64,000 nt of DNA, taken from the IMG/VR virus record IMGVR_UViG_3300046314_000711; one strand, written 5' to 3'. Source of the stretch: a virus. Shown here piece after piece: positions 24,311-41,434 of this stretch. A model generated the notes under the pieces. That model was not told where the DNA came from, did no database searches, and saw only the letters and a program-made list of their open reading frames with translations. Made by a program: the position numbers and the translations under genes. Each line of letters begins with the position of its first letter. The stretch's first letter is position 1.

Positions 24311-24703
24311 TTGAAAACAATCATAGCAGGCTCACGTGGAATTACTGACTATAATATAGTCCACAAGGCGATATACGAATCGCCTTGGGTAATTACTGAA
24401 GTGGTGTCTGGTGGTGCTAGAGGTGTTGATACACTTGGCGAACAAGCGGCTGCCGCATTCGCCATCCCTGTGAAAGTATTTCCAGCTGCTTGGGCCACAC
24501 ACGGTCGAGCAGCTGGTCCTATTCGCAACCAAGAAATGGCTGAGTACAGTGATGGACTCATCGCAATATGGGACGGAGTAAGTACTGGAACTGCGGATAT
24601 GATCAGACGAGCGGAACGTATGAAGTTACGCGTTCACGTGATCAATCTGTCAACCGTGCCTGTGAAACCGTGGTACGATGATATGGATGAGTTTGGGTTT
24701 TGA
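24311..24703 (+). CDS. SLOG/YspA-like (DUF2493) protein
   Basis: IIAGSR, VSGGARGVD, AGPIRNQEMA, WDGVSTGT. Confidence 0.85.
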   Translation: MKTIIAGSRGITDYNIVHKAIYESPWVITEVVSGGARGVDTLGEQAAAAFAIPVKVFPAAWATHGRAAGPIRNQEMAEYSDGLIAIWDGVSTGTADMIRRAERMKLRVHVINLSTVPVKPWYDDMDEFGF

Positions 24704-24713
24704 AAAATAACTG

Positions 24714-24892
24714 TTGACCCACTTTTCAAAATGTGTTACATTTAACTTATCGGTTCGCAAGAATGAAAGTTTGAACTAACCTGTTGACCAGATTTCGAAA
24801 ATGTGTTACATTAGACAAATCGGTTGATAAAAAAGATTTTTCTCCTAAACCATGAAAAATCGTTGACCACAAGAAGAGTTTGCATATATACT
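24714..24892 (+). promoter_or_regulatory. Three tandem sigma70-type promoters upstream of the tRNA operon
   Basis: TTGACC-17-TACATT at 24714 and 24784; TTGACC-18-TATACT at 24863. Confidence 0.8.
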
Positions 24893-24929
24893 TAAAAGAC
24901 TGATTAATTTAACTTAAAGAGAAACTAAA

Positions 24930-25037
24930 ATGAACGCCGTATTACTGAATCAACAACCGCTCTGTGCGCAACCGAATTATTGGTTGCAGCAAGCCTTTGT
25001 GCATTCGTTTTCCGCTAGTTCTGTAGAGACTCTCTAA
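24930..25037 (+). CDS. Putative 35-aa leader peptide
   Basis: AGAG RBS-like site; MNAVLLNQQPLCAQPNYWLQQAFVHSFSASSVETL; terminator follows. Confidence 0.5.
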   Translation: MNAVLLNQQPLCAQPNYWLQQAFVHSFSASSVETL

Positions 25038-25065
25038 TAGAATAAAAAGCAAAAACAAATTTCAC

Positions 25066-25093
25066 AAGGGCTCCCTACAAGGAGCCCTTTTTT
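25066..25093 (+). terminator. Intrinsic terminator or attenuator before the tRNA operon
   Basis: AAGGGCTCC-CTACAA-GGAGCCCTT plus T run. Confidence 0.85.
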
Positions 25094-25152
25094 ATTGAGC
25101 GATCGTGCACAATAAAGTGATGTTCATTAAAAATTAAAGAATATTGTAGTGC

Positions 25153-25225
25153 AGAGTGTTGGTGTAATTGGCAACATACAGAATTCCAAATTCTGCTGAT
25201 TTCAGTTCGAATCTGAAGCGCTCTG
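25153..25225 (+). tRNA. tRNA-Trp(CCA), no CCA end, acceptor extended by flanking inverted repeat
   Basis: CAGAA-TTCCAAA-TTCTG, TTCAG-TTCGAAT-CTGAA. Confidence 0.88.
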
Positions 25226-25260
25226 CACTGCAATATTTGCGAAGAAATAGTTTTCTTTGT

Positions 25261-25344
25261 CCGTGTATAGGCTAGCCTGGTCAAGTCACTCGTTTTGGGG
25301 GCGAGAGTAGTAATACATCGCTGGTTCGAATCCAGCTACACGGA
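25261..25344 (+). tRNA. tRNA-Pro(UGG) with long variable region and extended acceptor
   Basis: CCGTGTA/TACACGG, CTCGT-TTTGGGG-GCGAG, canonical T-arm. Confidence 0.85.
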
Positions 25345-25360
25345 CAAAGAAAATTAATAT

Positions 25361-25445
25361 GGGGTGTTATACCGTTAAAGAGACGGTCCGGATTGTAAAC
25401 CCGGCGCTTTAAGCTCAGATGGAGCATTACCATCACACCCCACCA
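25361..25445 (+). tRNA. tRNA-Tyr(GUA), non-canonical D/T loops
   Basis: GGGGTGT/ACACCCC, loop TTGTAAA, T-loop AGCATTA, ACCA. Confidence 0.8.
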
Positions 25446-25463
25446 AAAATTAGTAATCTGTGC

Positions 25464-25538
25464 TGTGGTAGAGGCGTCTTGGTGACAACCGCGGAACTGT
25501 TAATTCCGATTAGCGTGTATCGTTCACACGTACCACAG
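25464..25538 (+). tRNA. tRNA-Asn(GUU)-like, degenerate T-loop, extended acceptor
   Basis: CGGAA-CTGTTAA-TTCCG, TGTGGTA/TACCACA. Confidence 0.65.
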
Positions 25539-25563
25539 CACAGATTACTTAATAAAGCATTGC

Positions 25564-25642
25564 TGGCATATAGCTCGGTTGGTAGAGCGCTCAGTCTGGA
25601 CCTGAGAGACGCACATAAGTCGTATACATAGGTTTGAATGCT
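25564..25642 (+). pseudogene. tRNA-Pro-like 5' half with degenerate 3' half
   Basis: TAGCTCGGTTGGTAGAGC D-arm and CTCAG-TCTGGAC-CTGAG present; no T-arm or acceptor partner. Confidence 0.5.
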
Positions 25643-25663
25643 ACTAACGAAGTCAGTATTTTT

Positions 25664-25738
25664 CTCGGTAAAGCGTTGATGGCGTCGCACGTGTTTTGGG
25701 AACATGAGGGGAAGTTTCGAGCACTTCTACCGAGACCA
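25664..25738 (+). tRNA. tRNA-Pro(UGG)
   Basis: CTCGGTA/TACCGAG, loop TTTGGGA, ACCA. Confidence 0.85.
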
Positions 25739-25746
25739 AGTTTTAT

Positions 25747-25818
25747 GGGGGCAGCAGTGGGCTGCGGTTCTGCCTTGCAAGTAGAATGTCTAGTGGGATT
25801 CGATTTCCCCGGCCTCCA
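25747..25818 (+). tRNA. tRNA-Ala(UGC)-like, atypical D-arm
   Basis: G3:U70 acceptor GGGGGC/GCCTCC, TTCTGC-CTTGCAA-GTAGAA, GGGA-TTCGATT-TCCC. Confidence 0.65.
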
Positions 25819-26198
25819 CACATTTTCGGATAGCACCTTGCTATCTCTCAATCCACTGAATAGGTCGGTGGCGTGTTAATCGACTCTGCACACGCAGGGT
25901 TTTCAGTATCTACGATAAAGGTACGGCTAAGTTGTAATGCTAAAGAATTTATGCGCGATATGTCGAAAAGTGAGACAACTGCCTTTGACGCAGTACCAAA
26001 GAAGGGGCAGTACCTTCATCGCGTTCCAACTTATAGGAGATACTGTGAAAGCATTTGGTTCTAAACGAGCATACCACGACTGCCGAGTTTATCGTGCAGG
26101 ACGTGGTAAAAAGATCCTCTTCACCACTGGTGTCAAGAGTCGCAAACACGGTCGCAAGACTGTAATATTGCAAGATGGTGAGAATTGATAGAGATTGC

Positions 26199-26278
26199 GC
26201 CCCTGTTGACAAATTGGAAAAGTCGTCTTTTTTAGAAAAAGAAATATTTTGCAGGTTCGAAGCCTGTCGGGGGCACCA
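26199..26278 (+). tRNA. tRNA-Leu(UAG), short variable arm
   Basis: GCCCCTG/CGGGGGC, loop TTTAGAA, ACCA. Confidence 0.85.
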
Positions 26279-26697
26279 AGTTTACAAGGAGATCGCAATA
26301 TGAGCAAAAACGCAAAAAAGATCGCAGTACTAGAATCACGTATTGCAGAGTTGGAAGCAGAAATGAAGATGTCACTTCAAAGGAAGTTGTCTGGTAAGGT
26401 GGCATTTGATGTACCTGGCTGTCTTCGCAAGATTGCCGATCTGCGTAAAGATGTCAGCAACCTGAAGTGAGAGTGCGATGCCATCATAATGATGGCACTA
26501 TTTTATGTCGTAGATTAGTGGAACCTGGAAAGCATCCGTACAAATGTGGACTGGAGGGCGCAACGAGTTGTTTGAAGCTAGTGGAGTGGCCACAAAGCCA
26601 GCAGAATCAATCTTCGTATGCTTAAATCGCTGTTCTTGGGTGAACGGAGACACTGTGTTGTGTAATGGTGCAGTCGACATAAAATAGTTATAATTTT

Positions 26698-26780
26698 GCG
26701 AGTGTGGTGGAACGGGATACACTACTGTCTTAAACGCAGTCGCCCGTAAGGGATTGAGGGTTCGAGTCCCTCCACTCGCA
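26698..26780 (+). tRNA. tRNA-Leu(UAA)
   Basis: GCGAGTG/CACTCGC, loop CTTAAAC, long variable arm. Confidence 0.92.
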
Positions 26781-26801
26781 CACATTTTTAGACTTTATTG
26801 A

Positions 26802-26885
26802 GTAGGCGTGGCAGAGCGGTCGAATGCGCGGGATTGCAATCCCCGATCCTTAAAGGACACGTCAGTTCAAATCTGACCGCCTACT
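26802..26885 (+). tRNA. tRNA-Cys(GCA) with long variable arm and extended acceptor
   Basis: GTAGGCG/CGCCTAC, U73, loop TTGCAAT. Confidence 0.85.
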
Positions 26886-26902
26886 CAATAAAGTTTTTAT
26901 AT

Positions 26903-26979
26903 GCCCCCGTACGCTAAGAGGTAGTGCGACTGGACTTAAAATTTAGTGGCTGGGAGTTCGAATCTCCACTTCTTCACCA
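26903..26979 (+). pseudogene. Chimeric tRNA-Leu(UAA) with non-pairing acceptor
   Basis: 5' GCCCCCG cannot pair with 3' CTTCTTC-ACCA; anticodon and T arms intact. Confidence 0.6.
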
Positions 26980-27010
26980 TTTATAAATAACAAACTGTTA
27001 ATAAAGTACG

Positions 27011-27628
27011 ATGAAACTCCAACATATTCTTGATGAAATGGCGTACAAAACCACTACACAACATCCTGAGTTTCCTCAGGAGCAAGTGGATGGATTTGCA
27101 AAATGGATACAAGATGGTAGCGTTGCTCATCCTGTCGAAGGCGGTAAATTCAAAGTCCTGCAAAAAGAATTCGCTTTCGCATTGTTTCGTGCTAGAGATG
27201 AAGCATTGTTGGGGTGGGTTTTGCTTGATGCTGAGAAAACTGAATATGGAATATCTGCATATCCTCTAAAAAACATCCAGATTCTACCAAAGTATCGTAA
27301 CACTGCAGCAATTGTTGTGCTGATAAACGCGATGCGGCTGATACTCAATCGCCCCGTGTTGATAGATAATCCAATATTTTCCGGTGGACAATCACTACTA
27401 AAAGCAATTATCGCTCGACCAGACACGATGCCTCGAGTTAAAACGATTAATAAACGCACAGGTGAAGTTAAACAATATACTGATATGGATTTAGTATATG
27501 ACGATACGATAGCAGTATTACTAGAACAACTCCATTGGAAACTAACTCATTGTGATATTCTCCCAGGAGGATATAGTCGAGACATTGTGCTTGAGTTTTT
27601 CTCAACCTACACTACTGACTTGATATAG
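27011..27628 (+). CDS. Hypothetical late protein
   Basis: TATAAATA at 26982; MKLQHILDE N-terminus. Confidence 0.7.
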   Translation: MKLQHILDEMAYKTTTQHPEFPQEQVDGFAKWIQDGSVAHPVEGGKFKVLQKEFAFALFRARDEALLGWVLLDAEKTEYGISAYPLKNIQILPKYRNTAAIVVLINAMRLILNRPVLIDNPIFSGGQSLLKAIIARPDTMPRVKTINKRTGEVKQYTDMDLVYDDTIAVLLEQLHWKLTHCDILPGGYSRDIVLEFFSTYTTDLI

Positions 27629-28021
27629 GACTTGACGACACATCAGTTTTCACTATATACTTGATATTAATGCACCTCTCAAGCTTCAACCGGTTACCCG
27701 AATTGCCGGTATTGCTCAAACTGAGAAGATGTGTTTAGGGCTTTACCCTATTCATATCAACCACATCTACTTCTGATCGCGGGTAGACATTCAATGCGGC
27801 AGGTATTCAAGCGACACGGACCGTCGTCCGACTACATCACTGACTTCCTATCTGGTGGAAACTACTTGGGATTAAGGTCTGTGAGGACATAAGATTGAAT
27901 GTCTCTGTTGCGGGACAGAGAACATTCAGCAGGGCACTAGGTGATATACCAAGTTGTGTAAGCACTACCCTGCTGAATGTTAAAGTGCGGTATACGCAAT
28001 ATACTTTCATAACCTACTCAT

Positions 28022-28498
28022 ATGTCATTTATTGCCACAGATTATATCAACCATACTGCAGTGCAGCAATTTACTGTCGTTAGCTCTGCGGCTGCAGAAG
28101 CACGTCCCCACTTATCATTTATGGCATGGTTGAAAGAGTACCGCACATTTTCAATTGGACTACCTCGACAAGTTGGAAAAACAACAGCACTGCTGGCGGT
28201 GTCAAATGAGTCTACTGCTATCATCTTCCCGACACCCTTGATGTTGGCTTATGTTAAACGTAGCCGCCTCTCTGTATCAGTTGGTCTCTACGATCCTGGT
28301 AGTTTTGTAGAGTATGCATCGTCGTATCACACGTCGAGTAATTCACCCAAACTAACTCAGATCTTTATGGATGAATTTGATTACATACCTACTCACCAAG
28401 CGGAACAGGTAATGAATGCTATAGAGATGCTACAGCATCGTGGCGGATTGGCGGACGATGTGTTCATTCTGAAGGTTGGCACTCCACCTTTTTGCTAA
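28022..28498 (+). CDS. Hypothetical protein with P-loop-like motifs
   Basis: PRQVGKTT and IFMDEF. Confidence 0.6.
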   Translation: MSFIATDYINHTAVQQFTVVSSAAAEARPHLSFMAWLKEYRTFSIGLPRQVGKTTALLAVSNESTAIIFPTPLMLAYVKRSRLSVSVGLYDPGSFVEYASSYHTSSNSPKLTQIFMDEFDYIPTHQAEQVMNAIEMLQHRGGLADDVFILKVGTPPFC

Positions 28499-28526
28499 AT
28501 ACTTAATATTCGTACAACTGTTTTAT

Positions 28527-29861
28527 ATGATGAGATTTATTGACTATTTAATTGAAGCGTCTTCCGGCGTGGATATGTGGGACAAGTACTACAAGGGTCG
28601 TCGGGTAATGACGACTATCAAACCGAAGGGGGCACAGTTATATGACGCTAATACCAATAAAGCAATCCCAGGAAAAAAACTGAGCGGTGGACACGAAGTG
28701 CTAGTTATTGGTGAGTATCCATTGCTACCAACACCGTCTCCAGCAGATATGGCACCTGGTTCGCGGTATGATTTGCGTGTTGGAGCTACTGATCCAGCAA
28801 ATGCTGCGTCAAAAGCATACCAACAGCGCAGCACTCCAGGTAATGACCCAAGTTTCGTTGACGTTGAATACAGTACTCGCACTAAAATTGCAGTGTACGA
28901 TGATGGTCACCAAAGCGTGTATCTTGTAAGCGTTAGTGATATTGCTAAGCCACTTCAAAAGAAGTTGTTTGTGTCACTAAAGCCTCAGAAAGTTTTAGCA
29001 GGCCGAGGTAAAGTTGAAAACGGATTCGCTGTGTTCCCTACATTGACTGCGTATAAGACAGAGTTGATCGCTGGAATTGAACAGTGTTCTGATCTGTCTA
29101 AGGAAGTTAAAGCATATTTAACGACATTGGTGATCGATGGAAGGAATGCAAGTGCTGTTCAACCAACGTATGACCAAACAGGAATTTCGAATAGCGTGCC
29201 ATCATACAATGCGCTAAACAATGATTTCTTGGAGATGATTGGCCCATTTGTAGTTGGAAAGAGTGGAAAGGTAGAAATTCCATTACGCGACAATGAGGCT
29301 ATGATTGATTTTAAAGTTGGTGGGGTAGGTTTTTCTTCAAAGCGTGCAGCCACAGTAGCAAATACACTAAAGTGTGGTGATGTGATTAAAGCACTTGGAG
29401 GACAAAAACTCAATCAGATGGAATTTTCATATCAACTCATGTCAACTCTTGCAACTGCTACTGTAAAGCAAGCACCAGCCGAACTGACAAACTTATTTAA
29501 TAGTAGTAAGTTCGCTTCGGAAATTGCTCAATTTGCTAGCGAACGAGTGTTCAAAAACAAGCGATCCACATGGCTTCCAGCAAAATCTGACTGGTCAATT
29601 GAAGATAACTACAACATGCAGATGACTACTATTGAGAAGTTCGTTAACCAGTGTGTCGCTCAAGGTTCTATAAATTTTGACAAATACGTCAATGAAGCAT
29701 TAATGGATGTGGGCGTAGTAAAAATGCAAATTAATCCACGCACTGGTGCATTGGATAAAATCGCGGTAACCCAACCTGGTTCAATGACTGCTTCTAAAGT
29801 TGGAATCCGGCACAAGGGTCGTGGATTCAAAGGCGGTGAACGTATGGGGTTTGTTCTGTAG
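28527..29861 (+). CDS. Hypothetical late protein
   Basis: TAAATA upstream; MRFIDYLIEA N-terminus. Confidence 0.7.
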   Translation: MMRFIDYLIEASSGVDMWDKYYKGRRVMTTIKPKGAQLYDANTNKAIPGKKLSGGHEVLVIGEYPLLPTPSPADMAPGSRYDLRVGATDPANAASKAYQQRSTPGNDPSFVDVEYSTRTKIAVYDDGHQSVYLVSVSDIAKPLQKKLFVSLKPQKVLAGRGKVENGFAVFPTLTAYKTELIAGIEQCSDLSKEVKAYLTTLVIDGRNASAVQPTYDQTGISNSVPSYNALNNDFLEMIGPFVVGKSGKVEIPLRDNEAMIDFKVGGVGFSSKRAATVANTLKCGDVIKALGGQKLNQMEFSYQLMSTLATATVKQAPAELTNLFNSSKFASEIAQFASERVFKNKRSTWLPAKSDWSIEDNYNMQMTTIEKFVNQCVAQGSINFDKYVNEALMDVGVVKMQINPRTGALDKIAVTQPGSMTASKVGIRHKGRGFKGGERMGFVL

Positions 29862-30060
29862 TGCTAACTTATCCTGAACTTGCTGCACTAGGCTTTTGTC
29901 CAGTGAAGAACTACGGGTGGATGAAAGCTTTCCCTCGGGGCTTCCGTCTTCCGCTATCCTGCCCAGCAGATCTATACAAAAGGCTCCCGCTGCAGATCCA
30001 GATTTTCTACGACTCTCCTATCGTTGATGGTAAGCGAGCATTAAAACGCCAACTAACCTG

Positions 30061-30830
30061 TTGACCTAAACTCAAACTGGCGATATAATGCTCCCTGTGT
30101 CTGGGAAATATCGCTGGTAAATAAAAGACTTGTAAATATTTTCAAATATCTGTTGACTTTAATAGAAAACGGTATATAATAGACCCTAATGCAGTGATCG
30201 AGCTGCTAAACAGAGTTCTTTAAAAAGTTGCTTGTTAGCGTCGTAATCTGGGATACCATGCTCGCCTGGTAAGAGTGTGAGGTAGTGGTCGCCAGCCACA
30301 ATAGATGAGGTTCGACTCCTCCACGACGCTAATAAGCAACTTTTTAAAAGATTCTGTTGACCTTAAAAGATTTTAGGGGATAATAGACGTACAGATAGTG
30401 ATCGCACTACTAATAATAGAGTTCTTTAAAAAGTTAGTTTGTTGTGCTGAAAGGTCCACCCACTGTCTTGTGGGGAGAAGGTAATAAGAAAGTTATCAGA
30501 TCCGTTTGATAGCAGAAATAACTTTAACAAACGAAACTTTTTAAAAGATTCTGTTGACCCTAGCCAAAATTGGGGTATAATGGAGACTAAGCAGTGATCG
30601 AGCTGCTTGATAGAGTTCTTTAAAAAGTTAGTGAAACCGCTGTTCATAGTGACGCCAGCTGAGATGCTGGGTAGCGCCAAAAAAGAACGAACAGTGGGAT
30701 GACTTGGATCATACCAAGCGTATCACAAAACTTTTTAAAAGATTCTGTTGACACATACTGAAAAGTGTGTGATAATAGACCCTAAGGCAGTTAAGACTGA
30801 TCACAGTAAACTGCAAAGTTCATTAAAAAT
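30061..30830 (+). repeat. Tandem array (about 200-nt period) of promoter / hairpin / boxA / cargo-RNA units
   Basis: TTGAC at 30061, 30153, 30357, 30554, 30748 with (T/G)ATAAT 16-17 nt later; GTTCTTTAAAAA at 30215, 30421, 30615; AACTTTTTAAAAGATTCTGTTGAC three times. Confidence 0.85.
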
Positions 30831-31174
30831 CTAAAGTTACGAAACAGTAGGATTAGTAGTGTCCATCTGATAATGAGTGGCAAATGGTTCGAAGTGCACC
30901 ACCCGCGCAGTAATTGCCAGGGGAAGTGAATACGGGAAGCCATACGGGAAGTGTAAGTCAGTCCAGATACTTGTAAATGCAGGAGGTCTAAAGACCTGAG
31001 CGACCGCAGCAATGTGGGAGAGATACTGGGACCGTTTGAAGCCTTTAGTGTAATAACACATTCGTAACTAATAGATTTTGTTCTTTAATAATTTACCGAG
31101 TGATATTCCTCTACATCGACTTCACAGTCCAATGTCGGGAGACAGCTGGTGGTTTAACCGCCCGGTTGGAGGAG

Positions 31175-31408
31175 TCATATTCAAATATCGAGTAAGCGAG
31201 GAGTGCAACCCAACTGAAGACGGCCACTGCATAGCCGAGCCGGACGCGGTATTTGAATATGATTATCTATGCGACGATAGTGACTAGGGCGCTTCGGGGT
31301 CTTCGACAATAGCATAGAATCATATTCAAATATCGAGTAAGCGAGGAGTGCAACCCAACTGAAGACGGCCACTGCATAGCCGAGCCGGACGCGGTATTTG
31401 AATATGAT
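31175..31408 (+). repeat. 89-nt direct repeat (31175-31263 = 31320-31408); the spacer unit recurs near 32060-32141
   Basis: Identical sequence blocks read directly. Confidence 0.9.
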
Positions 31409-32260
31409 AAAGGTGAATGGGTTAGGTATGTCACTGCCATAAGAACGCGGCATGCTGAGTTGGTTCAATTCCAACAACTTTTGTTCAATATGAATCCATG
31501 TGACAATAGCGCGCAACGATAGCATGGAATCATATCAAAGGATAATCGCAGGTAATGGCAAGTTGGTAGGCCATCCAGTTAATTCTGGCGCTGTAGTCGG
31601 AGGTTCGAATCCTTCTTATTCTTTGATATGATCGATGAGTGTTCGAGTAGCCGTGATGTTACTCACAGGGCAAGTAATCATCGTATGACATCTCGGAAAG
31701 ACGGGCTTCATATTTAAGTACTCCTTATAGGATCGTGCATTGGTAGTTCAAGCAGGGGAAGTTTGTAGTACTTAAATATGGTAAGTCGGTTGTTTGTGGG
31801 TCATAGAGAATTGCAGTAAGTTGGTTTAGCGACCTTCTGAAGATTCTCAACCGGGGCTGCTACTCCAAAGGTAGATACTGGGACTCGGAATCTCAGATAC
31901 AAACAACAATTCATAGCAAAGGATGTTGCAACATTCTAGCGAGGTCGCAGGCAGTAATACAGCCCCTTCCGTTCGATTCGGAGTTATGGATGACTTGGCA
32001 TATTCAAATATCGTAGGTGATGATAGTACGCTGGTTACGGTGAACTTCCCTGATCTGAACGGTATTTGAATATGATTATCTATGCGACGATAGTGACTAG
32101 GGCGCTTCGGGGTCTTCGACAATAGCATAGAATCATATTCATCCACAAGTCTCTTGCAACGGGGATTACAACAGGGGAATTAACCCTAAACGTGTTGCAG
32201 CGTTGACCTCTGGTAAGGAGGTATAGCTTGAATTAACAGGGTGGATGAATATGATACTTT

Positions 32261-32343
32261 GGAGAAGGAAAGCTGATGGCTTCAGCACCGAGTCTGTAAA
32301 ACTCGTCCTTCGGGGAGAGGGTCGGAACCTCACTTCTCCACCA
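32261..32343 (+). tRNA. tRNA-Tyr(GUA), atypical
   Basis: GGAGAAG/CTTCTCC, CGAGT-CTGTAAA-ACTCG, T-loop GTCGGAA, ACCA. Confidence 0.75.
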
Positions 32344-32544
32344 AGTTATGACGCAACGTGAACAGCAAAGTTCTTAATGTCATGTGCAATGGCGATAGTA
32401 GAGACTATCCAACGGGTGGTGAGTACGCTCCACATCATGTATTACTAGAAATAGTTTTCACATGTAGTAAAAGTTATGTTATAATTACTACATGTGAAAT
32501 TGGTCTAATTAACCAAAATTACAATCGAGAGTAATTAACTCGAT

Positions 32545-32674
32545 GACCCTTGCATAGTTTATTCGGCAAAACGTAAGAAATGTTGGTTCGATTCCAACCT
32601 ATGAACTCTGTTCGTAGTCGTCTAATGGCTAAGACGCAGGAGAGGGTGGTTCGAAGCCACCTGCAAATAGGGTC
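32545..32674 (+). ncRNA. Nested double-tRNA-like RNA
   Basis: Outer D- and T-arms surround an inner T-arm, closed acceptor-like hairpin and D-arm. Confidence 0.7.
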
Positions 32675-32784
32675 GCAAATTTGTCAGTAAAGAGAGTAAT
32701 TCTGAGTTCTGCAGGACTTGCATTAGGTAGTGATACCCGCGCCGCGATGCTGGCGGATAGAATTACTCTCTTTAGTGATTGATT

Positions 32785-32879
32785 ACAAATTAAAGTGTAT
32801 TTTATAGGTTCGATTCCTAAAGGGCGACGGTCGATAATTTCAAAGTTACTCTAAGTGGTTTAAGTACACTTTAATTTGT
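32785..32879 (+). ncRNA. Y-RNA-like (permuted tRNA) element
   Basis: 16-bp terminal stem enclosing T-arm TAGG-TTCGATT-CCTA and then D-loop-like TAAGTGGTTTAAG. Confidence 0.55.
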
Positions 32880-33188
32880 TAGTCAGTAGGTAGGCTTAGG
32901 AGCAGCCACCCTTTAATAAGTGAGACGAAGGCACGTTGAAACATTGTAATCTGGTGTAGGGCAGCAATCCAGATGAAAGCACAATAGGATTTTTGGTAAT
33001 GTTAGATAACAAACTCAAAAGGTTTGCTGACCCAAAAATCACAGTACGGTAACTTCGCTAGTTACTAAAGCAATGGGATAGCTTCCCTGAGTGCGAGTTT
33101 CGCGTGAGCCACTTGGTTAAGTACAGAGGCACCCCAGAAATGGTAAGGCTGACGTTCTCTTTGGCGTAATAGCAAGCTAACTAACAAA
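32875..33188 (+). ncRNA. RNA containing a 23S rRNA H43/H44 (L11-binding) mimic
   Basis: GGTAGGCTTAGGAGCAGCCACCCTTTAA (32889-32916) and GCGTAATAGC (33164-33173) inside a closing stem. Confidence 0.75.
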
Positions 33189-33858
33189 AATATGATAAAT
33201 AGTCTATTCTAAATATGGGTACTCAAAATATCCGTTCTTAGAGGGTGCAAATCCCTAGATACCTCGGGTTACCGACTGTTGAAGCGGAGTGCTAGGTAAA
33301 AACAGGGTAGACTTATCATATTCAAGTTTTATTTTGTATGGCTCGCAAAATTCGAGACTCCCAGCAGATAGAACTTGAATATGATAATGTTCGAAAGTTA
33401 TCATAACGGAAGATGAGCAAACTCGAGTAAAACTCATCAAGGCACACTTTGGTGAAGTTTAAACGACTTCCAATGCTGAACCACTATACCACTGACTGGA
33501 GGATATCCGCGCCGGAGTCGTCCTTCGGTTGTATAGTTGAATACATTGAAAGAATTGGTCAAGCCCAGTCAAGCCCAGTCAAGTTGTAGTTTATTGAAGA
33601 ACACCAATGTATTCAACTATGCTATAAATTGCGGGGATGAAAATGGAAATGTCGTTCGCCATTATAGAAAACACCTCTGCCTAAGCTGTAAATAGATGGT
33701 CTGGACCCCATCGGCATGCTTTGAGTGTCCACTGATAAATAAGGTTTTGCTGGTAAGAATACGTCGTAAAAGTGATTTTACAGAATTTAGAAATTTATTC
33801 TGGTTGTCAATAAAAATCTCTATCCTCCAAAGCAGGGCCAGCAAATTTATAATTTAAC

Positions 33859-33991
33859 GCGGTTGATGGCTAACTAAATTATTTCAACTCCGGATGAGAA
33901 GTAACGAGGTATCTTAGCTGTTAATAGTCTAACTTGTGATTGAATGTACAATAAATCACGAGTCGGGGTGCAAATCCTCTCAGCCGTACCA
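33859..33991 (+). ncRNA. Enlarged tRNA-like RNA ending ACCA
   Basis: GCGGTTG/CAGCCGT acceptor, GGGG-TGCAAAT-CCTC T-arm, expanded D and anticodon regions. Confidence 0.5.
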
Positions 33992-34213
33992 ATATTCCCC
34001 CTATAGCCTGACGCAAGGGAGCCAAGAGCATGATGCAGTCGCGCTGCACGCCTCAGAGCATGAGAATGATGTTCCTTTCCGGTGCAAGCAGTCCGGTCCA
34101 ATTTTGCGATGCAGACGCGCAGCCTCTCCATTTCACGGAACAAAAGCTCGCAGGGTAGTTAGATAGTTCTGCACCGTTGGGAAAAGACCCCTTAGGCCCA
34201 ACACCAGATAAAT

Positions 34214-34316
34214 GCGCTTGTAATTCAGTGGTTAGAAGGTCACCCAGCTATGATGGCACGATACGCCGTAAAAGCACTGGCTCTGTTGGACGTGGGTTCG
34301 AATCCCACCAAGCGCG
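34214..34316 (+). tRNA. tRNA-like RNA with extended anticodon arm (identity unclear)
   Basis: GCGCTTG/CAAGCGC, canonical D and T arms, about 50-nt anticodon region. Confidence 0.65.
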
Positions 34317-34596
34317 CTATATTGAAACACACTGGCGATTCTCGTATGAGGGTCGTTATTTGGTGCACAAGTGTAACAGTGTGTTTCAATATGGTATAGT
34401 GTAATGAGAATGCACGGGAGCGCCACATAAATCTCTTTGACTAGAGTGGTGGAACAAGTTTCAAGTACGGTAAAACCCCGTAAGCCATATTTAAACGTAC
34501 TGATGAGCTGATGCAATTTCAGCGAAACTGTTGGGGAGCCATTACAATGATTTGCTCTTGTAAAAATATCCAACAGTATACGTAGAGGATAAGCGA

Positions 34597-35106
34597 ATGA
34601 AGTTGTCTGACATTTTATGCAGTGTCCACATCGTGGAGGCGCTAACGACCCGAGTTCCTATCACATGGGAACAATCTACCCCAGCTACTATTACTGGCAC
34701 TGGTGTCATTGATGGTGTAATAATAACACTAACGATATCGTCCCTAGTGTACAGTGGGTACAATGGTTGTAATCTAGCATTTGCTACTGATAAAGATGGT
34801 GAACCTGTTGAGGTGTTCCGAAACGAATTTGGGCAAAGTGCATCTAAAATTATTGGTGCTGTTGTTAATGGATTCAATGAGAAATTGACTGATTTTAACT
34901 TCGACTTTTTGTGTCTTGCAGCCAAAGACAACGTTGATAAGCGAGCTTCGCTTTATCTAATGATAGCTGAACGATTTGCACGTAGTCGGCAGATGCATGC
35001 TAGAACTGTTGCATACGGAGAAAACAAAGTTGTTATTATGATTAACCACGACCTTCCTCTCGATTTGATTAAAAAACTAGAACAACAAGGTAGTAGTGTT
35101 GATTAA
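34597..35106 (+). CDS. Hypothetical protein, paralog family A
   Basis: GAGGA RBS; KIIGAVVN...FDF...AKD..R..LY...ERFAR shared with 45156 and 49064. Confidence 0.75.
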   Translation: MKLSDILCSVHIVEALTTRVPITWEQSTPATITGTGVIDGVIITLTISSLVYSGYNGCNLAFATDKDGEPVEVFRNEFGQSASKIIGAVVNGFNEKLTDFNFDFLCLAAKDNVDKRASLYLMIAERFARSRQMHARTVAYGENKVVIMINHDLPLDLIKKLEQQGSSVD

Positions 35107-35166
35107 ATATGGTGTGCCACTGGCAGTGATGAGTGAATTAAAAAATAATCTCAAGTAACGCATTTA

Positions 35167-35241
35167 GCATTCGAGGTGTTAATAGATACATTCTTCGCTT
35201 CCACCGAAGAGTTCCCGGCGCGATACCGGGCGAATGCTCCA
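35167..35241 (+). tRNA. tRNA-Gly(UCC)
   Basis: GCATTCG/CGAATGC, CTTCG-CTTCCAC-CGAAG, U73-CCA, T-loop CGCGATA. Confidence 0.82.
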
Positions 35242-35674
35242 GAATTAGTCGGAGTAGCTAACCGAAAAGTAAACAGTAGATGCGCCATGGTTGCTCGGCG
35301 ATCTTTGCGGTGATCCACCGCGTCAGCCCGCAAGGTTGAGAAAAACTGCAGTAAAAGTCTGAAAGTAGAGCAATCAGAATTTGAGCACAAAGTACAAGTG
35401 TAATAGAGTAAATATTATCATCAGTACTTTGTGCAGTGATGGTAAATATTACGTCTGGTGATGAAGACGATGGCTTCCCACCTACGGATGTAATGCCATT
35501 CGAGTGTGATACCTTTAACCCTCTGGATCCGTTTGCAGAAGCGAAGCGTGGGACAGTGGTGCAGGAGTTAGATATGGACGAAGAGTCGTTTTGGCGACTC
35601 TTCCAGTAAAAATTGGGCAAGTGGTGCAGTTACGACAGTGTGTAACTGGTTCTACCACCAATACCCGATACTTT

Positions 35675-35757
35675 GGGCCGCTGACATATGCAAATTGGCA
35701 CAGCTACTCGGCTTAGAACCGAGGTTTTTCCCGGTTCGAGTCCGGGGCGGCCCACCA
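35675..35757 (+). tRNA. tRNA-Leu(UAG), short variable arm
   Basis: GGGCCGC/GCGGCCC, CTCGG-CTTAGAA-CCGAG, ACCA. Confidence 0.85.
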
Positions 35758-35794
35758 TTAATCTTAAAATAAGACAGGTAATCACATCTTAGTT

Positions 35795-36583
35795 ATGCAG
35801 AATAGAATATCAACAGCTACAAAGCAACAAATTATCGATATGTTCACTCAAGGGATGTCTAGAATGGATATTTCGAACCAACTGGGTTTGGAGTGGAAAC
35901 AGGTCGATTATTGGTGTCGCAAACAAGCTCGAGTGTCAGAATTAGCAACCGAAGTTGACTTTTCACCTAAATTGTTGCAAGCAGTTGGTGAGTACTACGC
36001 ATATTTACTTGGAGCATATCTTGGTGATGGGTATATCAACAAAGAGCGCTATACCTGGAAAATTAGATTTTCATGTGACGTGAGGTACCCAGGCGTTATA
36101 AACGCACTTACGCGAGCACTAGTGCAATTGGGGTTTGTAAACGCAGCATGCTGTAAAACTGGTAGCGATAATTGTGTTGAAGTGTACGCATACGGAAAAC
36201 ATATCGCAGCAATGTTCCCTCAGGTTGGTCCAGGACGAAAACACACAAGACGGATCAACCTCGACCATTGGCAACAACAGATTGTTACAAAGTATCCCCA
36301 ATATTTTGTAAGGGGGTTGTATCATACTGATGGGTGTAGATATATTCACACGGACAAAAAAGGCGATAAAGTATACCAATCGGTTAAATACGCATTCGTC
36401 AACAGATCGAAGGACATTATTGATCTATTTTGTGGAAGCTGTGATCAATTAGGAATCGGATACAGAGTCACAACTAAAAAGTTCATTGCTCTGACCACTA
36501 ATGAAGTTGCAATAGGTTGGGTGATTCAACTCGGCCGCAAAAACGAAGTACTAAAGCTGGAGAAGTTTTTAGGGCCAAAGTAA
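35795..36583 (+). CDS. Free-standing HTH + LAGLIDADG homing endonuclease
   Basis: N-terminal HTH, YLLGAYLGDG and VRGLYHTDG motifs. Confidence 0.85.
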   Translation: MQNRISTATKQQIIDMFTQGMSRMDISNQLGLEWKQVDYWCRKQARVSELATEVDFSPKLLQAVGEYYAYLLGAYLGDGYINKERYTWKIRFSCDVRYPGVINALTRALVQLGFVNAACCKTGSDNCVEVYAYGKHIAAMFPQVGPGRKHTRRINLDHWQQQIVTKYPQYFVRGLYHTDGCRYIHTDKKGDKVYQSVKYAFVNRSKDIIDLFCGSCDQLGIGYRVTTKKFIALTTNEVAIGWVIQLGRKNEVLKLEKFLGPK

Positions 36584-36655
36584 TAAATAACATTAAACCA
36601 AAACAATGGCGCATTTCTAGTTGGGCGTCTATACAAATTTAACTAGCACAAATTT

Positions 36656-36735
36656 GGGGCACGGGGCTGCTTGGGGTGGCCACTACACTTGCACTGTAGA
36701 TATTCAGCTCGGTTCAAATCCGAGGTGCTCCACCA
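36656..36735 (+). tRNA. tRNA-Ala(UGC)
   Basis: GGGGCAC/GTGCTCC (G3:U70), CTACA-CTTGCAC-TGTAG, ACCA. Confidence 0.9.
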
Positions 36736-37452
36736 AATTTGAAGTAGGACACAGCACTGTATGGCTACAATGTCAACATACAGGCTTCAAATCACTATTC
36801 GTTAGTCGAATCACCCAATGGAGGCACATGGTGTAAAACTTACCCTCCAATTTTTTAAAGATAGTCATATCATATTAGCGGCACGCTGGAAGGACAGCGT
36901 AGATGCAATACAGAAACAAGCATCACAATAGTGGGGGCGTTCACACACCAGTTAATACAGCCTCGATGTCCAAGAGATTAATTACCTCGCTTCGGACTGC
37001 AAAACCACCAGATTGTGCTGAGAATGCATTCAGAGGTAAGTAGGCGAGCACTGTGGACGCACATCTCGACGGAGGGCACTGCTAGGGTGTGCTGACTGGG
37101 AATCAAGCCCCGGACGCTAATATGATATGATTTATGACCCTCCCATTAGGGATGGTAAGCGAGCTCTCAGTGACTCTGCTAGGTGAAGTAGTTGGTGACC
37201 AAACAGACCGCCTTGGTCGGTGGTAATGTGGAATCCTAAACGCTTAAAAACTCCTGACAATAGGCCTAACCGGCCATACGATAAGGAACACTAGTAACGC
37301 TCTCGTTTCCCATAGCAGTTCACTCTGCAAAGGGTCGCCAAATAATCCATTCTCGGTTTAAGGTGAAGCACGCCCGAGCACCAACTTGCAAAAGTTGTAT
37401 AAAACCCAATTACAAGTGACACGACTGGTGATGGAAGCCAGTCACAAATTTT

Positions 37453-37647
37453 CCCGAGGTAGTTCAGTGGATGGTTGGTAATCAGTGGTAAGGAACGCCC
37501 ACTACGGTTATCTTCCCGCAGATTGTGGAGTAGCATTGGTTAGTAATCAGCACGCGGCTGACGAATCTGATGTGGCAAGTCTCTCTGTGTAGAACGCTCG
37601 TTCTCTAAACGAGAGGTCGGTGGTTCGAATCCACCCCTTTGGGACCA
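37453..37647 (+). tRNA. tRNA with about 120-nt D-loop insert; anticodon UCU (Arg) or shifted CUA
   Basis: CCCGAGG-TA-GTTC...GAAC, CTCGT-TCTCTAA-ACGAG, canonical T-arm, ACCA. Confidence 0.65.
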
Positions 37648-38079
37648 TATAAAACACATTCCGGGCTGTCTCCAATGGCGTACGGATCTCCGCAAGGCTG
37701 TACGGGACTGTAGCAATGCAGTCGAGGGGTGTGAATGTGTTTGTAATAACGGGCAACGTGAAGGCCCTGCTGATAGGTTTAAATGGCCTTGATCGAAGGT
37801 ACGCCGGACTACCACAACTCTTGACTGTTATCAGACTAAACAGTCACCATATAAAAATACTATTGACGGGTAGACCCTGCATACACCGCAGGGCATCTAT
37901 TCGGTTCCCTGGCAGGGGCGAACCTTGTGTTGTGCCAGCAGCGCAAGCAGTATTGATAGTGTTTTTATATGGTGATAGTGGGTCGAGAGTTTGTAACTTG
38001 ATTAAGTTCGGGGCGATCTTGATTTATAGTCCGAGCGTAAAACTGTGGGATCTTTAGTCCCGCAGATGTAAGCGAGCAA

Positions 38080-38460
38080 TTATCCTTGTTCAGCTATATA
38101 TTTAGCTATTGTTTCGGTCGAGGCATCCCCAGTAGAACAAACAAAATAACCAGATGACTAAAATATACAATTCTTCCAAAAATGTTTTCTCAGTTCGGAG
38201 CTGTGTAAGAACCAAACTTTTGCAGTAGTCGTTTGTTTCAATAATCTGACAATTTGTGAAACTGACACATTTGGCGAGTAATCAACCAGTAAATGGATAT
38301 GATCTTTGTCCACTTCCATTACTTGTATTTTGAAATCGGCTGTTTGATTTGTTAGTATTGTATCTTTGATGGTCTGTATTAGTTGTGGCTTAGACAGAAG
38401 TTTCTTTCTATACTTGACGCAGAACACAATATGGCTTTTGAGTGTAGCTTTTCTCCCCAT
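38080..38460 (-). pseudogene. tnpA: Y1 HUH transposase with in-frame TAG at the conserved Trp (F*SSGYF)
   Basis: HIVFCVKYR, DHIHLL; after the TAG at 38158-38160 the frame continues SSGYFVCSTG...KYIAEQG. Confidence 0.85.
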
Positions 38461-38529
38461 TTTGATGGTATATTTTCAATTTTGTATAAATATATTTATG
38501 TCAATCAAATCAACTGCATAAATAATAGT

Positions 38530-39804
38530 ATGAAACAGCTGCTCGCTTACAAATATAGGATTTACCCAACAGAAGACCAACAAATCCTTCTGAGTAAAAC
38601 CTTTGGCTGTAAACGGGTAATATTCAACCATTACCTAAATGTGCAACAAACAAATTTCAAGAACAAAGAAAAGCACCTGAGCAACTATGACATCAATAGA
38701 GACATTACTAAACTGAAGGATGAGAAGGACTGGTTACGGGAAGTAGATTCTATTGCATTGCAGATGGCAGCAGAAGACCTATCGTTGGCATATGACAATT
38801 TCTTCAAATCAACTACTGGTAAGAGAAAGGGTCCGAAGATAGCGGCTCCTAAGTTCAAAACCAAGAATTCTCGGCAGTCGTATAGAACTCGTGGGGTTCG
38901 TATCAATGAAAATGGTTCTTTACAAATACCAAAACTAAAAGCAGTAGAAGCAGTCATCCATAGAGAAATTCCAGGTGATTCGACAATCAAATCAACAACC
39001 ATATCAAAGAATACGGATGGAAGATATTACGCATCGATTTTAGTTGAAACAGAAGTAGCATTAAAGCCAACGACTGGTAGAGAAGTTGGTTGCGATGTGG
39101 GTCTAAAAGATTTACTCATCACTTCAGATGGGATAAAATTCAAAAGACCGAATGATTTGCTAAACATTGTGAAAACAAAACAATTGTTGAAGGCAAAACA
39201 AAAGCAGTTTGCAAGAACTGATAAAGGCAGTGAAAATCATGAATCAATTCGACTCCAAGTAGCAAGATTGTACTCAAAGATCACAAGACAACGAAATGAA
39301 TATTATCATCTAGTATCAAACTACTTAGTCGATAATTATGATTCCATCTACGTTGAAGATTTGTCGAGTAAGAATATGCTACAAAACAGGAAGTTGAGTA
39401 GAGCAATTCACGAGGCAGCATGGGCCACACTGACTGGAATGATTTCATACAAATCAAATCAGGCAGGTAGGACATATCATCGAATTAGTAGATGGTATCC
39501 GAGCAGTAAGACTTGTAGTTCATGCAATTACAAACTTGAAAAGCTCGATCTTGGAACCCGAGAATGGACTTGTCCTAACTGTGGAGTCTTTCACGATCGG
39601 GATCTAAATGCAGCAAAGAATATACTTCGTGTTGGTCAGATTGACTGCTACGAAGAGGTAATAGAGTCGCAAGCAACAGGCGATTTGGAATTAAAAATTC
39701 CATTGGCCCTACAGAAAATGACTAGTAAAATCGAGAGATCTGGCATATGCTTGTCAGTTGGTTATGGGAGTGGGCAAGCTGCACGATCTTTAGTCGTGCA
39801 GTAG
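38530..39804 (+). CDS. tnpB: RNA-guided endonuclease TnpB
   Basis: AYKYRIYPT, RuvC D/E/D (GCDVG, VEDL, DRD), zinc finger CSSC...CPNC. Confidence 0.93.
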   Translation: MKQLLAYKYRIYPTEDQQILLSKTFGCKRVIFNHYLNVQQTNFKNKEKHLSNYDINRDITKLKDEKDWLREVDSIALQMAAEDLSLAYDNFFKSTTGKRKGPKIAAPKFKTKNSRQSYRTRGVRINENGSLQIPKLKAVEAVIHREIPGDSTIKSTTISKNTDGRYYASILVETEVALKPTTGREVGCDVGLKDLLITSDGIKFKRPNDLLNIVKTKQLLKAKQKQFARTDKGSENHESIRLQVARLYSKITRQRNEYYHLVSNYLVDNYDSIYVEDLSSKNMLQNRKLSRAIHEAAWATLTGMISYKSNQAGRTYHRISRWYPSSKTCSSCNYKLEKLDLGTREWTCPNCGVFHDRDLNAAKNILRVGQIDCYEEVIESQATGDLELKIPLALQKMTSKIERSGICLSVGYGSGQAARSLVVQ

Positions 39805-40033
39805 TTGACAGTGGTTCGAACAAAAGCGGAAGCAGCCAGGCGAACTCATAGAGTTTGGATAGTGTTGGGACGGCAGAAATTCCCACTACCTATTGTCATC
39901 ATATAAAAATGTACTGTCCTACCCAAAGGGTGGCAGACAGTGGTTGGAAGGATCTGCTCGTTATCTATCTGATGGATGCACTCGGGTTGCACCGATGCCA
40001 AAGGACGATGATTGTAGTACATTTTTATATGAT

Positions 40034-40154
40034 TAGTTGGTGATGTAATTGGTAAACATAAGCGGTTAGAGGAATTTATCTTCGAGAAGGACGCCAAAAC
40101 CTTTCCTCGTAAACCGCTGGCAAAGTGTGGGTTCGAGCCCCATCCAACTTTCCA
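40034..40154 (+). tRNA. tRNA with 41-nt anticodon-loop insert (GUA if removed)
   Basis: AGCGG-TT-[40068-40108]-GTA-AA-CCGCT; D and T arms intact; TCCA. Confidence 0.65.
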
Positions 40155-40318
40155 TATAAAAGTTAGTTCCCATTTGGAGGTAGAACACTGCGTAATCCCA
40201 GTATAGCGCATTGGTCGAGCTAACTTTTATATTGTCCATATTTGAGTGTATTGCTATCGCACAAACAGTATTCCGGAAAACGGCCCACAAAGCTTAGCTG
40301 GGTAATACACTCAAATAT

Positions 40319-40432
40319 GGGGAGGTAGCTCAGTTGGCAGAGCAACGTAATCGAATGCAGAGACAGGCCGGCTTTATGGCTCTGTTAGTAGATATGCGCA
40401 TGTCGGTGGATCGTGGCCACCCCTCCCCACCA
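40319..40432 (+). tRNA. tRNA-like RNA with extended anticodon arm
   Basis: GGGGAGG/CCTCCCC, canonical D-arm, about 45-nt structured anticodon loop, ACCA. Confidence 0.65.
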
Positions 40433-40526
40433 TATATAGAATTATGTGGGCCACATCCTGTGGTTCATATGCAAACTGTCTTTAAAATTAATGGTCTTAG
40501 GCAGTGACCAGTACAATGGAAATAAA

Positions 40527-41327
40527 ATGATGTATAACAACAAGTGTGTAGTTGCTGCTAAGGCAAACGGTAAAGTTCTCCGCGAATTTAAAGATACTAT
40601 TTTCGTACCCTTTGGTAGTGAGTATTCACTACTAATCAAAAATCTAAACTCAGTCCGAGCAATTTTTAACATCTATATTGACGGTGATAATGTTGTTCCA
40701 GGTGGACTTGTTCTAGCTGCTGGTCAGGAGATTGATCTCGAACGCAGCATCAAGAACGGAAATCTCAACGAAGGAAATAAGTTTAAATTCATTTCTCGCA
40801 CAAGTGATATCGAGAATCACCGCGGAATAAAGTTAGAAGATGGTATTATTCGGATCGAGTACCAGTTTGAAAAGGTGTATCAACGCCAAGATGGTATCCA
40901 ATGGAATACTGACTTATACGGCTGCCCAATCACATTCGGTAATGCGCAAGTACCGCAAAGTTCTATTGTGCGCGGAATGAGTAATATCAACATTGCTGGA
41001 TCTGCGAATTGTGTTGCAACATTAGATGGTGGTGCATCTGCGCAGAATATGACAATGCTCACTGCAACCGCACAATCCGTGAATGATGTTGGTATTACTG
41101 TACCAGGTGGCAAAAGCGAGCAGAAGTTTGATACAGTGTCTTGGTTCCCAACAGAGATAGAAAAGCACACAATTGTGCTCAAAATACTTGGTGAGACCGC
41201 CGACAACAAACCTATTCCAACTCCCGTGACGGTGAAAAGTAAGCCCAAATGCACAAGCTGTGGTAAGGTGAACAAAGTTGGATCAAAATTCTGCAACAGT
41301 TGTGGCACTGGTTTGGATCTGTTTTAA
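40527..41327 (+). CDS. Hypothetical protein with C-terminal zinc ribbon
   Basis: Beta-rich N-domain; CTSCG...FCNSCG. Confidence 0.75.
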   Translation: MMYNNKCVVAAKANGKVLREFKDTIFVPFGSEYSLLIKNLNSVRAIFNIYIDGDNVVPGGLVLAAGQEIDLERSIKNGNLNEGNKFKFISRTSDIENHRGIKLEDGIIRIEYQFEKVYQRQDGIQWNTDLYGCPITFGNAQVPQSSIVRGMSNINIAGSANCVATLDGGASAQNMTMLTATAQSVNDVGITVPGGKSEQKFDTVSWFPTEIEKHTIVLKILGETADNKPIPTPVTVKSKPKCTSCGKVNKVGSKFCNSCGTGLDLF

Positions 41328-41434
41328 CCATCTCGCATATATAGTAGTATCGAGATCAAGTCTTCCAGAACTTTTTTAATCTGGCTGGACACCGCCAACG
41401 GGGAGTCTGTAAGCTAACAGTTGGAAAGATTTAT

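Follow-up and report, generated by a model that had tools for sequence, protein, structure and literature searches.

Long transcripts that are not translated are an obvious target for Rho, and we know of no explanation so far for the passage of polymerase through kilobases of phage tRNA and RNA genes. In E. coli rRNA (rrn) operons, boxA and the strand of the processing helix are separate elements. The closest described systems are the rrn leader, with its P2 promoter, boxB, boxA and boxC and the factors NusA/B/E/G, SuhB and S4, and the nut sites of phage lambda, which share with the locus described here a phage boxA and hairpin on the nascent RNA; in lambda these make host polymerase processive, as they putatively do here. 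It has been reported that the elements of rrn leaders stand in the order boxB, boxA, boxC, and that boxA is necessary and sufficient for formation of the rrn antitermination complex (PMC10250234). 16S rRNA also needs a leader-trailer helix longer than 17 bp, the formation of which is thought to be aided by boxA tethering (PMC10250234; also PMC12360218). In this study, five near-consensus sigma-70 promoters were identified between 30061 and 31091 of the window (the whole stretch of phage DNA analysed, 64,000 nucleotides), and four of them lead into a hairpin, a boxA-like 12-mer and a distinct structured RNA. We consider it fairly likely that the array is a row of four miniature rRNA-operon-like units, preceded by one additional promoter and transcribed by host sigma-70 polymerase; judging from its sequence, the phage probably makes its own RNAs with the host machinery that transcribes and processes rRNA. 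This rrn-type interpretation is supported by comparison and not by experiment, with Nus loading, Rho resistance and RNase III cutting as its putative steps.

The phage genome is a single contig of 109,810 bp with 43% G+C, in which ARAGORN found at least 16 tRNA genes. Near-identical DNA to the window is present in many freshwater metagenomes, and neither the genome nor the array showed DNA similarity to deposited phage genomes. The elements of the array and all boxA-like copies given below lie on the + strand. Upstream of the array, a 461-aa ORF without known family (28476-29861) is followed by a 67-aa ORF (29861-30064), the stop of which abuts the first promoter. The locus would give the long untranslated transcript that is typical of rrn operons, since there is no + strand ORF of at least 100 aa from 30065 to 34596 and, in a scan from the array onward, no + strand terminator with a strong stem was predicted before 35707. 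A tRNA block (array 2) lies on the other side of these ORFs, with its first tRNA at 25153 and a strong attenuator terminator hairpin upstream of it at 25066-25089. TnpB and LAGLIDADG-like genes were observed 5-8 kb from the array, and no integrase or recombinase adjoins it among the neighbouring ORFs.

When positions 24500-42000 (17.5 kb) were scanned against the sigma-70 consensus, the best scores were those of the array, with 11/12 matches at 30061, 30153, 30554 and 30748 and 10/12 at 30357; outside the array, one further 11/12 match was found in the 17.5 kb, at 32457. In the order 30061, 30153, 30357, 30554 and 30748, the spacers are 17, 16, 16, 16 and 17 nt. Promoter A (30061..30089; TTGACC, 17-nt spacer, TATAAT) is separated from promoter B (30153..30180; TTGACT, 16-nt spacer, TATAAT) by a leader without boxA (30096-30152), 80% conserved in the related contig L247 described below. 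Promoters C, D and E each include an UP-like region that is at the same time the trailer of the cassette before them: that of cassette 1 for promoter C (30338..30384; TTGACC, 16-nt spacer, GATAAT), of cassette 2 for promoter D (30535..30581; TTGACC, 16-nt spacer, TATAAT) and of cassette 3 for promoter E (30729..30776; TTGACA, 17-nt spacer, GATAAT with TG). In these three units the 3' strand of the closing helix thus has a second role, as the sequence just upstream of the promoter that follows. The 24-mer AACTTTTTAAAAGATTCTGTTGAC occurs in three exact copies at 30338, 30535 and 30729, with 0 expected, and in a diverged fourth copy at 30134, and AGAGTTCTTTAAAAAGTT is found in three exact copies at 30212, 30418 and 30612. 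With trailers shared in this way between one unit and the promoter region of the following one, the constant frames amount to long direct repeats, between which cargos can be gained, lost or exchanged. Neither the 24-mer trailer/promoter repeat nor the combined promoter-boxA pattern of this phage had any match in IMG/VR. The terminator scan returned no intrinsic terminator on the + strand within 30061-31091, and a U5 run follows each long-range helix, where weak termination may still take place.

The leader hairpins lie between promoter and boxA. Hairpin B (30191..30206), GCAG-TGATCGAG-CTGC, occupies the boxB position, hairpin C (30396..30409) reads TAGTG-ATCG-CACTA, and hairpin D (30588..30609) reads AAGCAG-TGATCGAG-CTGCTT. 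Hairpin E (30787..30814) is two-tier and is conserved in L247 at 7040-7075. GTGATCG is present in three of the four hairpins, and the fourth, hairpin E, contains CTGATCA. The boxA-like motif GTTC[AT]TTAA[AT]AA has six copies in the 109,810-bp genome against 0.09 expected from shuffles, and all six are on the + strand, which is the RNA-gene strand, and in leaders of RNA genes. The copy of cassette 1, GTTCTTTAAAAA (30215..30226), begins 34 nt after the -10 element; the motif count placed those of cassettes 2 and 3 at 30421-30432 and 30615-30626 and a fourth, GTTCATTAAAAA, at 30818..30829. A terminal copy, GTTCTTTAATAA (31080..31091), immediately follows the last trailer, at a place comparable to that of the rrn spacer boxA, and is conserved together with its 3' flank in L247 at 7183-7224. 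The outlying copy, also GTTCATTAAAAA (25122..25133), lies between the attenuator terminator and the first tRNA of array 2. A first-pass annotation made from the sequence had described units of promoter, small hairpin, boxA-like motif and structured cargo, and had listed further boxA-like copies at 30818, 31080 and 25122; repeat, promoter and fold scans recovered every one of these elements, and the whole-genome motif count found those copies and none beyond the six. Three phage copies contain the 11-mer GTTCTTTAAAA exactly, and those at 30818, 31080 and 25122 are each one position off; two copies read GTTCATTA, the binding of which by NusB/NusE is only putative. In the phage units, boxA is located 33-41 nt after the -10 element and a hairpin of 5-10 bp ends 3-9 nt before it. 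A GTGTGGG-like boxC is absent behind all phage boxA copies, as read from the sequence, and a search of the next 16 kb for a long-range partner of the terminal boxA region (31076-31125) gave nothing better than shuffled queries.

Comparison with bacterial genomes gave a first test of the boxA assignment. We scanned one genome per prokaryote species for TTGAC, a gap of 17-19 nt, TANAAT, a gap of 20-50 nt and GTTCTTTAAAA, and obtained at least 120 loci. Among the loci listed, 36 have a 16S 5' end 72-269 nt downstream, and another 43 run into a contig end within 400 nt; contig breaks are common at rrn operons. Most of the organisms belong to the Beta- and Gammaproteobacteria, among them Gallionellaceae, Sideroxydans, Nitrotoga, Zoogloea, Methylophilus, Nitrosomonas, Porticoccaceae, Cellvibrionaceae and Marinobacter. 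Across the 36 rrn leaders verified by 16S, GTTCTTTAAAA follows the -10 element by 24-49 nt, the spacer is 16 bp in 33, a hairpin of 4-14 bp ends 0-3 nt before boxA in 31, and a GTGTGGG-like boxC lies 15-23 nt after boxA in 30. The phage motif can be placed in this class of leader because GTTCTTTAAAA is identical in all 36 and exact in three phage copies, and promoter, hairpin and boxA stand in the rrn order near the start, with a phage spacing that resembles that of rrn leaders. That the phage motif is boxA, as had been claimed from the sequence, is supported by the identical 11-mer behind a 16-bp-spacer promoter and hairpin in 16S-linked leaders; the comparison with E. coli TGCTCTTTAACA made at that stage understates the match, since the phage carries a variant found here mostly in Beta-/Gammaproteobacteria.

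By sequence, the phage units appear to match the verified rrn leaders in everything except boxC. They share the strong sigma-70 promoter with mostly 16-bp spacer, the hairpin immediately before boxA and the same boxA 11-mer, and like the rrn operon they have an untranslated template and a further boxA after the first processed RNA. Unlike rrn leaders, they have no boxC and no GC-rich discriminator, the element recurs four to five times within 1 kb, and the RNAs driven are of 100-250 nt instead of 16S and 23S. Like pre-16S and pre-23S with their RNase III helices, the presumed mature RNA lies between complementary flanks, here of 19-36 bp, that start just after boxA, and the phage helices exceed the 17 bp on which 16S is reported to depend (PMC10250234). 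The rrn boxA, however, stands 18-19 nt before the helix, whereas the phage boxA overlaps the leader strand of it, and in the phage the trailer is the upstream region of the next promoter and the enclosed RNAs are small and mutually unrelated.

A second test of the boxA assignment came from other phages. A like promoter pattern ending in TGTTCTTTAAAA was found at no fewer than 119 loci in IMG/VR, and among the 121 matches listed, 76 (on at least 76 contigs) are followed by a tRNA on the same strand within 1.5 kb; for 45 the distance is no more than 30 nt, with the tRNA usually at +15 to +20. With a scrambled 12-mer in the same pattern, 59 matches were obtained and 0/59 had a downstream tRNA; thus promoter, hairpin and motif head tRNA arrays in many phage contigs that are unrelated to one another, and the scrambled control has no such link. 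The tRNA-linked leaders have a hairpin of 5-8 bp between the -10 element and boxA, mostly with a GAAA, GCAA or AGAAAU loop, and its stems vary with pairing kept (UUGA/UCAA, GCUAGC/GUUAGC, CUGUU/AACAG, ACUGA/UCGGU). In these phage leaders boxA is not part of any clamp, and the tRNA starts 7-22 nt later; since boxA is conserved there, pairing alone cannot explain its conservation. The hairpin sequence GTGATCG is conserved in this phage and in L002, L019 and L115, and a shorter TGATCG in L034. A search for GTGATCG followed by boxA gave seven loci, of which only L001 and L002 are genuine leaders; the remaining five look coding or chance and were discarded. Likewise, the cassette design itself (boxA, about 100 nt, TTTTAAAA, TTGAC) had 10 loci in IMG/VR, all chance or coding. 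For a typical IMG/VR leader, no similar DNA was found among deposited phage genomes.

Each RNA of the array is closed by a helix of 19-36 bp (~36, ~28 and ~28 bp in cassettes 1-3 and ~19 bp in cassette 4, from folding and inverted repeats), in line with the pairing over more than ~17-20 bp expected of a processing helix, and the three cassettes of L247 fold alike. Cassette 1 (30209..30358) has a 36-bp helix, 30209-30244 / 30323-30358, the flanks of which form inverted repeat I1 with 89% complementarity; cassettes 2 (30415..30555) and 3 (30609..30749) enclose cargos at 30436-30534 and 30630-30728, and cassette 3 has no counterpart in L247. The stretches from boxA to the next promoter in cassettes 1-3 fold with -68.6, -41.3 and -48.9 kcal/mol and z-scores of -9.1, -4.8 and -5.7. 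In cassette 4 (30826..31079), a helix of 30826-30843 / 31061-31079 surrounds a structured RNA of ~217 nt. The first-pass claim that each cargo is clamped by pairing of its flanks holds for the three cargos then named, around which the helices fold, and extends to this fourth one (30844-31060), which is additional to them and closed by AAAAUCUAAAGUUACGAA / UUCGUAACUAAUAGAUUUU. In the constant part of the helix, AACAGAGUUCUUUAAAAAGUU pairs with AACUUUUUAAAAGAUUCUGUU in 20/21 positions including G-U, and cargo-specific extensions are added by cargo 1 (GCUUGUUAGCGUCGU / ACGACGCUAAUAAGC), cargo 2 (AGUUUGUUG / CAACAAAC) and cargo 3 (AGUGA / UCAC). The T-run/A-run cores of boxA and the UP-like region are nearly palindromic, which makes part of the constant complementarity cheap; this does not apply to the ends that contain G/C or to the extensions specific to each cargo. 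In three units boxA falls within the helix, whereas in cassette 4 and in the last cassette of L247 most of boxA is outside.

The core of cargo 1 resembles a tRNA in having an acceptor-like stem (30238-30244 / 30323-30329) and a good T-arm (30307-30321; GAGG-UUCGACU-CCUC); its middle arm has a 6-nt loop and a bulge, and there is no anticodon loop. The earlier description of it as tRNA-like with a T-arm is thus right as to the stem and the arm, but it is not called a tRNA by ARAGORN or by Rfam at E<=5, and a true tRNA was rejected for want of a 7-nt anticodon loop and with the tRNA models silent. No Rfam family was found for cargos 2-4 at E<=5; for 30061-31091, Rfam gave nothing at gathering score in a search of the whole window or at E<=5 in 29800-33500. 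Apart from cargo 2 and its counterpart in L247, no cargo has similarity to any fetched locus, bacterial rrn loci included.

The protein encoded upstream has homologues with 43-49% identity; eight proteins were obtained from a large protein collection and none from IMG/VR, and one homologue contig recovered from metagenomes, L247, carries a syntenic array. It has a leader like that of promoter A (80% identity over 69 nt) and three promoter-hairpin-boxA cassettes, followed by a terminal boxA with the same 3' flank; its four boxA copies are all on the + strand, and the first reads GTTCTTTAACAA, which at that position agrees with E. coli. Of the cargos, only the second is retained, at 6915-6986 (87.5% identity over 72 nt); in place of cargo 1 there is unrelated sequence, the third cargo is missing, and where cargo 4 would be expected L247 has a different RNA of about 95 nt, unrelated to it. 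The three L247 cassettes have the same kind of terminal helix (z -4.7, -6.9 and -3.8). Seven cassettes, four here and three there, hold six unrelated cargos, whose own complementary ends lengthen the constant helix. In the cargo-specific part of helix 2, both strands are changed in L247 and still paired (ACUUGUUGA / UCAGCAAGU), in a comparison of two sequences; hairpin C differs by one U-A to C-G pair and one change to U-G, and the inner hairpin of cargo 2 has one compensatory U-A to C-G exchange. The first-pass annotation had suggested an expandable cassette array of constant repeats and variable cargos and a comparison of unit number and cargo content in related phages. That comparison, made with L247, gave three cassettes against four, with cargo differences: the frames are kept and cargos are swapped or lost, which bears out the cassette idea in part, the word expandable being based on a single relative.

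Parts of the stretch are present in six metatranscriptome runs, and assembled contigs from four of them were mapped to 29000-35000; these contigs tell presence only, not starts, ends or levels, and DNA carry-over is possible. Cargo 4 is represented in the RNA libraries of four freshwater studies, by contigs that begin at 30819/30825 and end at 31071/31079. A contig at 30421-30623 includes cargo 2 together with promoter, hairpin and boxA of unit D, and as it crosses the unit boundary it fits read-through. Another, at 31042-31192, reaches into the RNA block that follows. In three studies, three contigs end at 31071-31079, inside the trailer, and another runs on; the ends are at most a weak hint of processing.

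Based on the sequence and on comparison with rrn operons, we propose the following course of events. Host sigma-70 polymerase would start at one of five stacked promoters, all close to consensus and preceded by A/T-rich sequence, and the nascent RNA would present a short hairpin in the boxB position and then boxA, within about 40 nt in four units. While single-stranded, boxA most likely recruits host NusB/NusE and other Nus factors, and the polymerase would then resist Rho and pauses on the untranslated template and go on across the following cassettes as far as 34.6 kb, where the RNA region without ORFs ends. About 100-250 nt later, the trailer strand would pair with the leader strand, the start of which lies in or at boxA, and close the small RNA in a helix of 19-36 bp, a likely RNase III substrate for release or trimming, as in pre-16S and pre-23S. 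The next unit would supply a fresh promoter and boxA, and the terminal boxA at 31080 putatively serves the following RNA genes. Of these steps, those on the promoters, on the presentation of hairpin and boxA and on leader-trailer pairing come from sequence and comparison, and Nus loading, Rho resistance and RNase III cutting are inferred from the rrn system. Because boxA overlaps the leader strand in three units, factor binding and pairing should compete; the overlap may be a hand-over device, or only the inner helix may matter. The presence of a promoter in every unit lessens the need for processivity within the array.

Other readings of the same units were considered. It is rather unlikely, in our view, that they are a plug-in small-RNA cassette in which boxA in the leader strand acts as a co-transcriptional clamp-closer for whatever cargo is inserted; if it were so, the Nus-modified polymerase would hold the 5' strand until the trailer emerges, and the helix would free boxA and reset the complex at the next unit. 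As a further possibility, the many released boxA leaders might starve host rrn operons of antitermination by titrating NusB/NusE. We regard as unlikely that the units are independent small-RNA genes whose closing helix and UUUUU form a terminator, the likeness to boxA being that of an A-rich pairing strand. Every trailer does read AACUUUUUAAAAG directly after a strong cargo-specific stem, and this reading would suit both the promoter in each unit and the near-palindromic T-run/A-run cores, but a helix closing 80-220 nt of structure makes a poor terminator, the terminator scan is blank on the + strand of the array, and an RNA contig bridges 30421-30623. The same 12-mer, moreover, heads at least 76 phage tRNA arrays without any partner strand and is the boxA of the verified rrn leaders, a conservation for which this reading has no account, and most of it lies outside the helix in cassette 4 and the last L247 cassette.

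A specific binder of the hairpin is suggested by the conservation of its loop sequence, with GTGATCG kept here and in L002, L019 and L115 and TGATCG in L034, and the mostly GNRA-like loops (GAAA, GCAA) of the other phage leaders are reminiscent of lambda boxB. Hairpin and boxA might thus be a lambda-style nut site for an N-like antiterminator of the phage instead of part of a host-only rrn pathway, and N-like antiterminators are small and hard to detect. However, hairpin precedes boxA in all units, as in rrn, whereas in lambda boxB follows boxA; the same layout occurs in bacterial rrn leaders without N, and the phage target is non-coding RNA, not early mRNAs, which makes this reading quite improbable to us. 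Least of all do we expect the repeats to act mainly as DNA, as recombination or protein-binding sites or operators with incidental RNA features. Constant frames around variable cargos, the differing content in L247 and the nearby TnpB and LAGLIDADG-like genes would fit such sites, but all six motif copies are in the transcribed orientation, the cargo-specific complementary extensions make sense only as RNA helices, no integrase or recombinase is adjacent, and the frames are the best promoters of a region that is found in RNA libraries. A CRISPR-like or integron-like array was considered and rejected, as the repeats contain promoters, no cas gene or integrase adjoins and the inverted repeats stand on both sides of each cargo instead of behind it.

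If the rrn-type interpretation is right, a host-type rrn leader on phage RNA genes would be a concrete and testable answer to the Rho problem, and the scans suggest that such leaders are common, with the exact motif on at least 76 IMG/VR contigs. No description of boxA leaders on phage tRNA arrays or small-RNA genes was found in the literature searched; BOXA in one match is the name of a PCR primer. The stacked mini-cassette form, in which each copy of the leader encloses one small RNA, is new here, and would be a compact natural design for high-level production of several folded small RNAs whose ends are set by a helix. Cargos of these cassettes turn over between related phages, and searching behind boxA leaders offers a handle on new phage small RNAs. 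As boxA variants differ between bacterial groups, the boxA of a phage also hints at its host range. The predicted NusB-NusE target RNAs of the phage boxA are GUUCUUUAAAAA and GUUCAUUAAAAA.

The clamp that closes each small RNA of the cassette array, in which leader and trailer pair around the cargo, recurs at two tRNA genes in window 25118-25345. Here tRNA-Trp (25153-25226) is enclosed by an extra flanking helix formed by AATATTGTAGTGC and GCACTGCAATATT, and tRNA-Pro (25261-25345) by one formed by TTTTCTTTGTCCGTGTA and TACACGGACAAAGAAAA. In both genes the flanking helix lengthens the acceptor stem, and the logic of these helices is the same as that of the cassette clamps.

Leaders composed of a promoter, a hairpin and boxA were also found at other fetched loci, and in two of them the modules are stacked in pairs (L034, 14056-14216, minus strand; L002, 515-760), with a spacing of about 90-190 nt and with blocks of tRNAs or structured RNAs downstream, an arrangement resembling the P1/P2 pair of rrn operons. 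In L034 the leader is separated from the first tRNA by an HNH-like ORF. In L019 (267-337), the promoter, TGATCGA-loop hairpin and boxA are followed by protein-coding genes, not tRNAs, and the same leader is present in L115, thus boxA leaders in these phages are not confined to RNA genes. L242, a contig assigned to a bacterial genome bin, carries a tRNA preceded by a phage-type leader of promoter, hairpin and boxA, and is probably phage DNA binned together with the bacterial genome.

Ahead of its syntenic array, the relative phage contig L247 carries an additional promoter and a small zinc-ribbon-like ORF (L247 6317-6523), which separate the array from the conserved 67-aa ORF and have no counterpart in the window. 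Among the RNA-library contigs, one from run X19 (depth 14.6, which indicates presence and cannot rank genes) passes from the 3' half of cargo 1 straight into 33855-33988, joining position 30340 to 33855 with the 3,514 nt between them missing. The joint may come from a strain whose array is shorter, from a chimeric assembly or from joining at the RNA level. Within 29000-35000, the contigs of highest word depth fell at 32819-33019 in all four RNA-library runs.

Rfam called tRNAs of 103-105 nt at 34214-34316 and 47714-47818, two intervals at which ARAGORN made no tRNA call, and these long tRNAs probably contain an insertion or intron. The RNA-gene region also holds protein genes, namely a LAGLIDADG-like endonuclease ORF (35795-36583) and a TnpB gene (IS605 OrfB / Cas12f-like; 38383-39804). 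A DUF2828/DUF7788 protein, of a family presumably related to Ro60, is encoded at 46252-47685.
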